64,000 nt of DNA from Escherichia phage E20, in sequence record OP745616; one strand, written 5' to 3'. Below are positions 32,390 to 34,877 of the stretch, one piece after another. Numbering within the stretch: the first letter of the stretch is position 1; each line of letters starts with the position of its first letter. A program made the translations under genes and the position numbers. The notes beneath the pieces were generated by a model. That model saw only the letters and a program-made list of their open reading frames with translations, was not told the DNA's origin and searched no databases.

Positions 32390-33394
32390 TCTGGTAGGTG
32401 GCTCAGAAGCTGCTGCTAGGTGTGGTAGTGTTTATAGTCCTGATGCTACTACTGGTCAGGATTATAGACGTGTCGGCTCCATACATAGCTTTTATCATCA
32501 CTGTCATTATCCTGTGGAAATGCAGTGGTAAACACGGTGGTGACAAGCCGCCAGAATAACAACAACCGAACCAGTGGATTGGAATACTCTCCCCAGTCCA
32601 TTGGTTCAATCGGGGTTACTATGAACAAATTTACTATTCACTGGCTCAATGGAAAGGTTAGTTCTTTCATGGGTGGAGAACCTGCTGAAGGAAGCATTGA
32701 AAAAGAGTAGTTAATATCGTGAAGGGTTCTGTTAGAATCTTTTGAGATAGGAACTCCTATCATAACCTTTCTTAACTTAATCTTTGCCGTATGGCACTGA
32801 CGCTAGGGGTGGCCCCCCATCCGTCAGACAGACTATTTTAAGAATGGGTTATCTCAGAAAATGTAAAGCAACATTCGGGTTAATCAATGGCCTCTCCTAT
32901 AGGGGCCATTTCTGAATCTTAGGCTATATCCCAAAGGTTAGTATCTTTGGGATAAGGCTTCAGATCCCTTATCAAACTAACCGCTCATGTTGAGCATATT
33001 AATTAACCCAGCCCACTAAGGGGGCGGGAGTTTAATGCCGGTAAGCATAAGCCTATCCGACTACAACATCGAACTGTTAGGTCTTACATGCAACATAGGG
33101 TATAAAGGGAGGATTCGTCCCCTCCCTCCTATTATGAACTACCGGAGAGTGCATTAGTTGATTAGCTGTGGAAGGTAGGCCGATGTCCACAAGCGTGGCC
33201 CAGAGCTAGTGTACTCCCCGATAGTTTTCGTAGCGATTATGCGGTTTTTTAGAAACGAACCAATAACATAAATGCAAACGAAGAAGCGTATCTGATGGTC
33301 GCCTAACAGCGTAACCTCAGTCAGGAGTGAGTCGTCCTGATTATCAAACGACCATGGAGTTCTCCCGTCCATGTATTAGAAACGGGGGGCCAAT

Positions 33395-33518
33395 TACCAG
33401 TTGCACGAGATGGCTTGACATGCTCAAGTTTGGACTAAGTGTGACACCGCTAGATTGGAGGGCTGCTGCGGTAAGCTATAGACTCCAACCGGAGGTTCGA
33501 ATCCTTCACTGGTAACCA
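33395..33518 (+). ncRNA. tRNA-like 3' domain (T-arm GGAGG-TTCGAAT-CCTTC, acceptor 3' strand, encoded ACCA); 5' boundary unresolved
   Basis: Canonical T-arm at 33491-33507 followed by ACTGGTA-A-CCA; only perfect acceptor complement TACCAGT is 120 nt upstream at 33395-33401. Confidence 0.25.
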
Positions 33519-33522
33519 ATCA

Positions 33523-33630
33523 GAAGTAGCACTGCATAGAACGCGAAAAGGTTCAGCGACGTTAGCCATACGGTATTGTAAGGTTCGAGTCCTTACCTAT
33601 GAGCAGTGACGACTGCAACAGTGCTACTTC
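33523..33630 (+). ncRNA. Structured element: 12-nt inverted repeat GAAGTAGCACTG/CAGTGCTACTTC enclosing a T-arm-like hairpin (TAAGG-TTCGAGT-CCTTA)
   Basis: Inverted repeat at 33523-33534 and 33619-33630; T-arm-like at 33579-33595; no acceptor stem could be paired. Confidence 0.25.
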
Positions 33631-33646
33631 TAATTGGAATAAATAT

Positions 33647-33724
33647 TGTGGGTGAGCATACGGTTATGCTACAGGCTTCCACACCTGTATGTGAAGTGAG
33701 GTTCAACTCCTCCGCCTGCAACCA
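33647..33724 (+). tRNA. tRNA-like gene with encoded CCA; anticodon loop non-canonical by hand fold (8-nt loop CTTCCACA)
   Basis: Acceptor TGTGGGT/GCCTGCA (7 bp, 3 G-U), D-arm GCAT..ATGC, anticodon stem ACAGG/CCTGT, T-arm TGAGG-TTCAACT-CCTCC, ACCA 3' end. Confidence 0.4.
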
Positions 33725-34291
33725 AACAATGGGGGTAAGTCGTAAATACGACGGCGTAAGTACCAGATGAAACCTCTGGACGCCCCTACCATATTTGAGA
33801 TGTAACAGTTAAATCCGTACCCGGAAGTGCTATTCTAGATACGCTGCCAATGTGGAGACGGTAAGGCTGTACAGGACTCGGACTCCCATCTCAAACCAAA
33901 GTCGCCAGGTACTTATGGCAAACGGGTAGTAACGAACTAGTCATTCGTCAAACGCCCACCTAATTATGAGTCAGCAAGAACGCCTTCACTTAAACTTAAA
34001 CAAAAAAGCTTAACGCAATAATTATGTAGGGGTATGTAAGGATTGCGAAGAAGGAGCCAGTTAGAGCCTGGCATGACTCACCTAATATGAGCACGTCTAA
34101 TCATCCTGGTTAAGCAGTAGCTAATTACTTATTGCTGTAAAATGAACTACTTAATATAGTTCTTCAGATACAGAGTAACTTGGTTGGATGGGGTAGGTAT
34201 CCTGCCCCTGCTCATTCTATTATAGGTAGCTCGTACTAGTTACGAGGCAGTCAATCTGTGGCAGTGTAAGGCTGCCCTACCCTTTCATTAA

Positions 34292-34364
34292 TACCCGGTA
34301 GGCTTAGTGGCAAAGCCCCACTAGTAAACTAACTAGGACGCAGGTTCGAATCCTGCCCGGGTAA
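34292..34364 (+). tRNA. tRNA-like gene; canonical acceptor, D and T arms, but anticodon loop folds as 6 nt
   Basis: Perfect 7-bp acceptor TACCCGG/CCGGGTA, D-arm GGCT-TAGTGGCAA-AGCC, T-arm GCAGG-TTCGAAT-CCTGC; anticodon stem CTAGT/ACTAG with loop AAACTA. Confidence 0.45.
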
Positions 34365-34373
34365 TCATACTAT

Positions 34374-34447
34374 GTCCACTTAGCTTAGACTGGGAAAGCA
34401 ACCGACTAATAATCGGAAGGTCACTGGTTCAAATCCAGTAGTGGACA
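34374..34447 (+). tRNA. tRNA, anticodon AAT by hand fold (would read Ile codons if A34 modified); needs tRNAscan confirmation
   Basis: Perfect 7-bp acceptor GTCCACT/AGTGGAC, D-arm GCTT-AGACTGGGA-AAGC, anticodon arm ACCGA-CTAATAA-TCGGA (C32 U33 ... A37 A38), T-arm ACTGG-TTCAAAT-CCAGT. Confidence 0.55.
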
Positions 34448-34683
34448 CCCATTCAGCAGTAACATAGTCCTGATTGCATAGCACTCTAAAGACAACACTG
34501 GTAAGACAGTCCAGTGGCTGCTAATGTATTGTTATTCCCCTCGACGGGAATTTCGCTAGTGAAGGTAACACTTAAAAATCCAAACCTACGTCTTACTACT
34601 ATCGGGCTATCAACCCACGGTCGCTTAACCCACTAGTGGTAGTAGTTTGACGGCCTGCCTCGTTGACTGCGTTAAAGTCACTA

Positions 34684-34720
34684 AGTCCCCTGGAGCCGTC
34701 ACTCTGGGGGACTTTTTTAT
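34684..34720 (+). terminator. Rho-independent terminator closing the tRNA-like region
   Basis: GTCCCC ... GGGGGAC stem then TTTTTTATTT. Confidence 0.6.
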
Positions 34721-34877
34721 TTGAGAACTACTTATTGGACGATTCATATGATTGACCTAATCTTAACCCCGTATGCCTATGAGGTAACGGATAACCGAGG
34801 ACGTAAGTCTTTGGTGTTTGCAGGTAGCGTAGCCTATAACAACGCAGTCATGTTTAAATACAAACTCAAACCACTCT

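Follow-up and report, generated by a model that had tools for sequence, protein, structure and literature searches.

Non-coding RNA modules of tRNA-like shape and a probable tmRNA-derived tag template in Escherichia phage E20

In Escherichia phage E20 (sequence record OP745616), of which a stretch of 64,000 nt was analysed (hereafter the window), a segment from approximately 32711 to 34722 is free of credible open reading frames (ORFs) and filled with structured elements (Table 1). At 33143-33389, it contains a module with the architecture of the messenger half of a transfer-messenger RNA (tmRNA), i.e., a resume context, a 10-codon frame, a stop-codon hairpin and two pseudoknots. This module had been overlooked in an earlier reading of the sequence (the original prediction), which had singled out the segment for its irregular tRNA-like elements. 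Folding and inspection of the region reveal about 12 self-closing tRNA-shaped units. By sequence comparison the phage is a Gamaleyavirus, a G7C-type N4-like coliphage, so that the original prediction had correctly guessed an N4-like phage; 24 kb around the region match Bas96, F22, KKP 3715, and PhAPEC5 at 94-96%.

Table 1. Features of the 32711-34722 segment of the phage E20 window, with the basis for each assignment.
Positions	Strand	Feature	Basis
32711-32738	+	Sigma-70-like promoter: TTAATA, 16-nt spacer, TG-extended TAGAAT	Consensus scan, 9/12 matches
32745-33035	+	5' structured segment with nested strong hairpins	79-97% conserved in relatives
33036-33142	+	Conserved structured module with GGGAGG/CCTCCC hairpin (33107-33126)	Folding and relatives
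33143-33220	+	Hairpin A', 33143-33157 paired with 33206-33220; small pseudoknot-like fold at apex	Sequence inspection
33220-33273	+	Candidate PK1 and resume-codon context: GTTTT 33224-33228 / GAAAC 33252-33256	Alignment
33274-33306	+	Tag frame GCA AAC GAA GAA GCG TAT CTG ATG GTC GCC TAA = ANEEAYLMVA-stop	Rfam; ARAGORN at relaxed threshold
33300-33311	+	P5-like hairpin over the stop codon (CGC/GCG)	Covaries in family (UA/CG, CG/UA pair types)
33321-33352	+	Pseudoknot PKa: S1 33321-33326/33335-33340; S2 33331-33335/33348-33352	Covariation
33353-33389	+	Pseudoknot PKb: S1 33353-33358/33368-33373; S2 33362-33367/33383-33388	Covariation
33395-33518	+	tRNA-like element T1: 7-bp acceptor TACCAGT/ACTGGTA, canonical T-arm 33491-33507, ACCA, expanded interior	Fold and covariation
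33523-33633	+	Long 12-bp closing stem around a canonical T-arm and two more hairpins	z-score -4.2, 0/200 shuffles as stable
33646-33724	+	tRNA-Sec-shaped RNA: 9-bp acceptor, 6-bp D-stem, 4-nt D-loop, 4-bp T-stem, CCA	Relaxed thresholds
33729-33792	+	Mini tRNA-like element: 7-bp closing stem, two hairpins, CCA	z-score -2.1
33794-33898	+	tRNA-like element: 9-bp acceptor, 3-bp T-like stem, CCA	Acceptor covariation
33899-34291	+	Four structured modules: 33899-33965, 33966-34090, 34091-34215, 34225-34282	z-scores -1.2 to -3.1
34292-34364	+	tRNA with 6-nt anticodon loop AAACUA, 3' end TCA, not CCA	ARAGORN; Rfam 40 bits
34374-34447	+	tRNA-Ile, anticodon AAU	ARAGORN; Rfam 65 bits; annotated tRNA-Ile(aat) in relatives
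34451-34722	+	3' structured tail and intrinsic terminator	13-bp stem 34683-34714, then T-run

A permissive Rfam scan gave weak matches to tmRNA_permuted and beta_tmRNA on 33205-33353, covering the tag; the sequence aligned to the tmRNA models reads ...AACAUAAAU GCA AAC GAA GAA GCG UAU CUG AUG GUC GCC UAA, and ARAGORN at relaxed threshold also reports the tag ANEEAYLMVA*. The resume codon is preceded by ...AACATAAAT, and nowhere in the family alignment is conservation higher than in its surroundings (33220-33273). Directly upstream of the tag module, the helix of the long hairpin A' is also present in the minimum free energy fold of 33144-33518 and shows compensatory differences relative to phage IME11. 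In the window the module is of a short form, with T1 directly following the second pseudoknot. The features shared with tmRNA (ssrA, RF00023) are the GCA resume codon, U-A at positions -5/-4, a 10-codon tag starting with A-N-D/E, hydrophobic residues and A before the stop codons, a hairpin over the stop, and H-type pseudoknots after the tag with a candidate one before it. The E. coli ssrA tag, ANDENYALAA, has the same length and pattern as the phage ANEEAYLMVA, but phage tags end in ..L(A/M)(V/A)A where that of ssrA ends in ..ALAA.

Constraint on the module was assessed in 141 family copies for the codons, and in an alignment of 84 non-redundant members for the structures (candidate PK1, stop-codon hairpin and the two H-type pseudoknots). 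The frame has exactly 10 codons in all 141 copies, with the pattern AN[DE][DEN]xxLx[AV]A-stop; the lengths of the other two frames vary, and the stop codons TAA, TAG, and TGA interchange. Synonymous changes account for 52% of the single-base codon differences, as compared to 23% of the possible changes, and relatives of E20 encode ANDDVVLMAA or ANDDVILMAA, again with synonymous differences. Since the constraint is thus exerted at the peptide level, ribosomes appear to read the tag. At the structural level, 88% of the family structure is paired, versus 79% in shuffles and 34-47% when the partners are slid; 18 pairs display compensatory changes, and none of 500 shuffles reached the observed covariation. 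In PKa, 98.9% (S1) and 99.2% (S2) of the cells are paired among 80 distinct sequences, with compensatory changes at six pairs; the corresponding values for PKb are 96.8% and 85%, with eight such pairs. Covariation supports the stop-codon hairpin and two downstream pseudoknots, not three as in tmRNA, and no P2 is seen. The PK1 pairing, satisfied in 82% of cases, shows no covariation, and PK1 therefore stays a candidate.

The distribution of the module was determined with a BLAST search of phage records (query 33195-33395), a pattern scan of IMG/VR, and searches of complete E. coli genomes and of species-representative genomes. Together they define a large family that is unannotated in enterobacterial phages and prophages. 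BLAST retrieved 350 phage records, in which the module is annotated as nothing at all or as a hypothetical ORF. The carriers span at least six unrelated phage groups, virulent and temperate, and include Gamaleyaviruses, Klebsiella N4-likes, Ackermannviridae (Vi01, Serratia 3M), Ithacavirus SP-058, T1-like Klebsiella and Escherichia phages, Carvaje, P1, and D6; the IMG/VR scan added 120 loci. In the T1-likes and Vi01-likes the module lies behind its own sigma-70-like promoter, and, among six contexts that were read, tRNA genes adjoin it in P1 (tRNA-Asn), ZCKP8 (tRNA-Arg), and Carvaje (tRNA-Ser). In E. coli, 143 of 5426 complete genomes (2.6%) carry it, always unannotated; it occupies, in lambdoid prophages, the interval from the Q antiterminator gene to the holin gene, downstream of a pR'-like promoter. 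In two lambdoid prophages (L163, 2190-3220, and L164, 2240-2840), it falls in the late-transcript leader, after a pR'-like promoter and terminator. Of 100,044 species-representative genomes, no more than four contain it (Pseudocitrobacter, Pantoea, an Escherichia sp., and one metagenome-assembled genome), so that in no species sampled is the module the chromosomal ssrA.

The tag module is embedded among tRNA-shaped RNAs, very few of which are recognized as tRNAs. With default settings ARAGORN calls two genes only, 34292-34364 (tRNA-???, with a 2-nt 'anticodon' that corresponds to a 6-nt loop) and 34373-34451 (tRNA-Ile AAU), and the Rfam tRNA model (RF00005) retains the same two elements at its gathering threshold. 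The second fits tRNA by cloverleaf, 7-nt anticodon loop and score, while the first exceeds the score cut-off though its anticodon loop has 6 nt; no other module of the region reaches tRNA with either program. Both the 6-nt loop and the AAT anticodon had been seen by hand folding in the original prediction and are borne out here. The 6-nt loop, of the form AAAC-N-A with U, C, or G as fifth base, was called in 9 of the 17 relatives first fetched, most of which encode ACCA, and this abnormal loop is kept in every relative having that tRNA. Canonical T-arms are abundant: the motif GGTTCRANYCC occurs five times in the window, all on the plus strand and between 33494 and 34436, against 0.24 expected, a count reached by none of 100 shuffles, in agreement with the at least five T-arms announced earlier. 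ACCA or CCA ends are encoded at 33515-33518, 33722-33724, 33788-33790, and 33896-33898. Acceptor stems and ACCA ends were thus rightly noted, except that the stem of the element starting at 33646 has 9 bp instead of 7.

Compensatory changes indicate, at the level of sequence, that these modules are structures under selection. T1, restricted to N4-like phages, has no anticodon arm and is not called a tRNA by ARAGORN or Rfam, but its acceptor varies in a compensatory manner (TATCAGT/ACTGATA, TACTGGT/ACCAGTA) and an A-U pair of its T-stem is replaced by G-C. In the same way, 18 copies of the 33794-33898 element display the acceptor variants TTTGAGATG/CATCTCAAA, TTTGAGGTG/CACCTCAAA, and TTTGGGGTG/CGCCTCAAA. 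Such substitutions in the closing stems support the earlier suggestion of degenerate or repurposed tRNA-like RNAs, or of another structured non-coding RNA. The 33646-33724 element is detected at relaxed thresholds only, by ARAGORN with the anticodon 'tcca' and by the Rfam tRNA-Sec model (RF01852) with 33.5 bits on 33646-33721, for a cut-off of 47. Its fold and D-arm fit tRNA-Sec, while a variable-arm stem and the UCA anticodon are lacking. Its 'anticodon' loop (CUUCCACA) has 8 nt, as hand folding had indicated, and this length is kept in Bas96 and NAN33P5 despite three differing loop bases in Bas96. An alanine identity for this element was rejected, as its G:U pair is at 4:69 counted from the CCA end and not at G3:U70.

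Stable folding is not limited to the elements with tRNA-like ends. The z-scores of the region modules go down to -6.8, a value obtained for 32875-33010; that of 32745-32880 is -3.8, and none of 200 shuffles was equally stable for either. The 32745-33035 segment has no Rfam match, and the nested hairpins at 32875-33010 are conserved in all Gamaleyavirus relatives. Two of the four modules in 33899-34291 are cloverleaf-like, with T-like hairpins (5-bp stem, 7-nt loop), and the boundaries of these modules coincide with mosaic breakpoints in relatives. The motif CACCTAAT(T)ATGAG occurs at 33957-33970 and again at 34079-34091, each time at the 3' border of one of two consecutive modules, and may be a processing or recombination signal.

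Could the stretch simply be a conventional phage tRNA cluster whose oddities are folding errors? Canonical T-arms and acceptor stems are indeed present, and normal tRNAs are found at the syntenic slot in related genera. At the corresponding site of more distant N4-like phages (IMG/VR loci L023-L029, with a gp48-like protein 67-71% identical), canonical tRNA-Asn(GTT), Asp(GTC), Tyr(GTA), and Gln(TTG) genes are found, and, as judged from this synteny, the E20 locus fills a slot in which related N4-like phages carry ordinary tRNA genes. Three of these four tRNAs have G at anticodon position one (GUN anticodons). However, only two of about 12 modules score as tRNAs with ARAGORN and Rfam, one of them with a 6-nt loop that is kept in relatives, and relaxed searches add nothing but a sub-cut-off tRNA-Sec-like RNA with an 8-nt loop. 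The mis-folding that the original prediction had allowed for is refuted by this result, since the elements are not all standard tRNAs with 7-nt loops, and an ordinary cluster is hardly credible. Selected structures, combined with ordinary tRNAs at the syntenic place in distant N4-likes, instead argue for a transformed tRNA cluster.

When set against 17 Gamaleyavirus genomes, the locus resolves into blocks of 80-99% identity, each of which may be present, absent or reordered independently; the breakpoints often read ..CCAA, the 3' end of a tRNA-like unit. Annotation of the locus is equally inconsistent, with tRNA-Ile, tRNA-OTHER, pseudo-tRNAs, tRNA-Ala/Cys/Thr/Val, or strings of hypothetical proteins, ten of them across the stretch in Bas96. 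In six genomes (L008, L011, L012, L017, L019, and L020), a tRNA-like element that ARAGORN calls tRNA-Ala(CGC) lies about 160-235 nt upstream of the tag; the window does not have this module, which was reported as an alanine tRNA in one genome announcement. With an acceptor stem of 8 bp and without G3:U70, it is unlikely to accept alanine.

This variability bears on the possibility that the locus is a graveyard, i.e., a decaying tRNA cluster together with a captured, functionless fragment of host ssrA that hitch-hikes by recombination. Module content differs highly between close relatives, some of which have no tag module or lack single tRNA-likes, anticodon loops are abnormal, and the 3' CCA of the 6-nt-loop tRNA is mutated to TCA in the window. 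Decay would, however, account neither for the compensatory substitutions in the closing stems and in both pseudoknots, nor for a tag frame that is unbroken in all 141 copies, which are spread over unrelated phages, virulent as well as temperate, and have a promoter context of their own in each; moreover, the 6-nt loop does not vary at random but is conserved. With such covariation and so broad a distribution, a pure graveyard is improbable.

The preferred interpretation is that 32711-34722 is a non-coding RNA locus, made of a mosaic of about 12 tRNA-shaped modules that includes the messenger half of a tmRNA, whose tag would be read in a partner-dependent manner. A probability of roughly 0.55 is assigned to it. 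The locus is probably a single transcription unit, as suggested by the promoter-like site at 32711, in sequence conserved across all Gamaleyavirus relatives, and by the terminator at 34683. This terminator had already been proposed as closing the region, and the PhAPEC5 annotation has one at the same place. In the proposed scheme, the locus would be transcribed as a precursor, which host RNase P and 3'-processing enzymes would cut at the tRNA-like modules, thereby releasing stable RNAs. The freed tag-template RNA would then work with a separately made tRNA-like partner, provided by the phage (a neighbouring module) or by the host, and its frame would be read on ribosomes via a template switch of the trans-translation type. 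To our knowledge, trans-translation is the only known way to read a start-less frame.

Several observations weigh against this interpretation. In tmRNA, the two ends of the molecule form a tRNA-like domain, with G3:U70 and CCA, without which known trans-translation is impossible. Around the tag module, no enclosing acceptor with G3:U70 was found, nor was G3:U70 found in the local tRNA-likes, and in 15 of 85 non-redundant family members no T-arm is present within -350..+800. Nor was a helix found that would connect the 5' side of the module with its 3' side: the long hairpins that flank it in many lineages covary within themselves and not mutually, which argues that there is no P2-like closing helix. 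Between 33144-33393 and T1, no complementarity of at least 7 nt was found. Standard detectors fail as well. In Rfam, RF00023 gives 11.7 bits and RF04321 21-33 bits for a cut-off of 47, ARAGORN by default reports no tmRNA at any locus examined, and a family sequence profile that finds the window copy (33216-33394, E = 3e-37) does not detect homology to E. coli ssrA. In addition, the promoter is a consensus match only, and some Gamaleyaviruses (L006 and L015) do not have the module, which is therefore accessory or dispensable. Because no alanine-type domain encloses it and standard detectors fail, the module is to be regarded as tmRNA-derived, as its tag, resume context and pseudoknot architecture indicate, and not as a canonical tmRNA.

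Attempts to complete the module into a tmRNA led to the rejection of several models. One-piece tmRNAs (33205-33514 and 33036-33518, from relaxed ARAGORN) were discarded because the 3' strand of T1 covaries with its own 5' strand and not with the 5' acceptor strands that these models put forward, and they also conflict with the pairing of 33206-33216 in hairpin A'. A long-range P2 between the pre-tag ..GTGCTCTTTCC and the post-PKb GGTAAGAGCAC was abandoned as well, since the hairpins of locus L047 differ, each matching its own partner. The association of T1 and the tag module as a two-piece tmRNA was dropped for lack of the complementarity sought above, and in the window no pieces were found that pair into an acceptor stem and P2. 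A supposed similarity between T1 and the 3' portion of E. coli ssrA did not hold, the K-12 sequence sharing only GACUAAG.

Another candidate for the missing domain was helix B (TGTGGTG...CACCACA, to which A and in some cases CCA are added), a tRNA-derived domain found after the module in many phages, with compensatory TGTGCTG/CAGCACA variants. It was rejected as the tRNA-like domain because it lies 3' of the module instead of enclosing it, and because neither the window nor many family members have it. In L145 (IMG/VR), helix B, a degenerate tRNA-like domain in other phages, is the acceptor stem of a complete tRNA-Ile(AAU), about 350-430 nt after the tag, which suggests that helix B derives from such a tRNA. 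The tag module occurs together with a tRNA-Ile of this rare anticodon in two lineages that are not related (L145, and the window at 34374-34447). The unit formed by hairpin A and helix B in prophage L163 is 100% identical in phage HK620 (AF335538, 15979-16204), and 177 phage records match segments of this unit alone, a count that refers to unit segments and not to the tag module.

The main rival to partner-dependent tag reading is that the module inhibits host trans-translation, either as a decoy that titrates SmpB, S1, RNase R, or ribosomes, or by annealing to host tmRNA, so that rescue and tagging are shut down. The failure to find a tRNA-like domain in cis would fit such a role, as would the reported inhibition of tmRNA by a fragment of mycobacteriophage DS6A consisting of the tRNA-like domain only, partial tmRNAs being able to inhibit (PMC4131195). 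Moreover, the 5' motif UAGUUUUCGU (33222-33231), the best conserved one in the family, is perfectly complementary to ACGAAAACUA, which corresponds to ssrA tag codons 3-6 (K-12 nt 97-106). However, this 10-nt complementarity was reached by 42 of 1000 shuffles (4%) and is not significant alone, so that an antisense to host ssrA was not retained, and the motif can also pair within candidate PK1. A decoy would need neither an exact 10-codon frame nor a stop codon nor an excess of synonymous change, and inhibition is considered rather unlikely. The ACGAAAACUA stretch of the host tag is absent from all phage tag sequences seen.

A broader proposal can be made, namely that enterobacterial phages of many families practise a split or parasitic trans-translation. 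A stand-alone tag-template RNA would be loaded onto stalled ribosomes via a separate tRNA-like RNA or via host tmRNA-SmpB, and stalled peptides would receive a phage tag (..LMAA/..LAVA) late in infection. This proposal is tentative and well short of an even chance. In the accepted view, tmRNA is one bifunctional molecule or a pair of pieces from which such a molecule is reassembled. The best Rfam matches of the phage module, although sub-threshold, are to two-piece tmRNAs (RF01849, RF01850, and RF04321, from alpha- and beta-proteobacteria and cyanobacteria), with which it shares the notion that tag template and acceptor RNA are separate pieces of one precursor. In the permuted genes, however, the acceptor piece is upstream, and both pieces jointly build the acceptor stem and P2, whereas the phage tRNA-likes self-close. 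With respect to tmRNA in general, the phage module differs by having no tRNA-like domain formed from its ends, no G3:U70, no P2, and only two downstream pseudoknots.

Phage copies of tmRNA have been reported only from mycobacteriophages and Bacillus phage G (PMC4131195, PMC11915505). The full tmRNAs of cluster C mycobacteriophages and of phage G are canonical and found by standard tools, and none is reported from enterobacterial phages. The DS6A fragment, with its tRNA-like domain only, is the opposite half of tmRNA to that kept by the coliphage module, both being phage-borne partial tmRNA genes (PMC4131195). In searchable full-text literature (subscription journals lying outside this scope), no description of a tmRNA-like element was found for N4-like, Gamaleyavirus, or prophage contexts. 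If true, a messenger-only tmRNA derivative would imply an unknown way of feeding a tag template to ribosomes, or a widespread manipulation of ribosome rescue by phages. There is also a consequence for annotation, as the tag element and the surrounding tRNA-shaped RNAs are now overlooked or carry wrong labels, either of hypothetical small proteins or of tRNA-Ala, -Cys, -Thr, or -Val.

The tRNA-shaped RNAs have their own counterparts. The tRNA cluster of phage T4 produces 'species 1 and 2', stable non-tRNA RNAs with tRNA-like ends that are released by tRNA-processing enzymes. By description, they resemble the coliphage modules in having such ends within a phage tRNA cluster, but T4 has no tag template. 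Known tRNA-Sec and 'allo-tRNA' shapes include 9/4 and 9/3 combinations of acceptor and T-stem, and YrlA is a tRNA-like Y RNA. The 33646-33724 element has the 9/4 shape and the D-arm dimensions of tRNA-Sec, and 33794-33898 the 9/3 shape, whereas these elements of the region differ from tRNA-Sec in scoring below cut-offs and in having neither a UCA anticodon nor a long variable arm. The long terminal stem and T-arm of 33523-33633 are as in YrlA; the YrlA model (RF02553) gives a single match of 18 bits (cut-off 69), overlapping the two tRNAs, and none on 33523-33633.

Phage tRNA arrays with altered anticodon loops are known to escape or neutralise host tRNases, such as PARIS, retron effectors, and anticodon nucleases (PMC11464382, PMC11555353, PMC10264068). 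During infection, the odd tRNA-likes of the locus may add to the tRNA pool or act as decoys within it; by analogy, the tRNAs concerned may be those targeted by host tRNases. In contrast to these modules, most of which have no anticodon arm or a 6- or 8-nt loop, the counter-defence tRNAs are canonical and decodable. The odd tRNA-likes are candidates for involvement in conflict with tRNA-cleaving defence systems.

Lastly, some relatives are annotated as if the stretch encoded small proteins. The ORFs inside it are of 30-72 aa only, the longest within 32711-34720 being of 72, 62, and 54 aa, and they are found on either strand, overlap with the RNA modules and are not the same from one annotation to the next. 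The absence of credible coding capacity over about 2 kb, which had been noted from the start, is thus borne out. Of five ORFs tested, four have no PHROG match. The fifth, a 40-aa ORF (33035-33157), matches phrog_37481 (E = 2e-30), a family without annotated function that seems to have been built from the same unverified ORF of related phages. Its frame and length are not kept among relatives though the DNA is conserved, and its IME11 counterpart, in another frame, continues through the upstream part of the tag module. As the indels of relatives in this place are not multiples of three, this ORF is probably spurious, and protein coding is a scarcely tenable explanation for the stretch.

Coding sequence is found just before the RNA locus. 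The ORF-free stretch had been thought to start right after the acidic-protein gene, but two small ORFs that match PHROGs are located at 32398-32710, between that gene and the locus, and it therefore begins near 32711. The first of these ORFs (53 aa), of hydrophobic and membrane-like character, weakly matches a PHROG membrane protein of the moron category, and the second (61 aa) matches a PHROG of unknown function.

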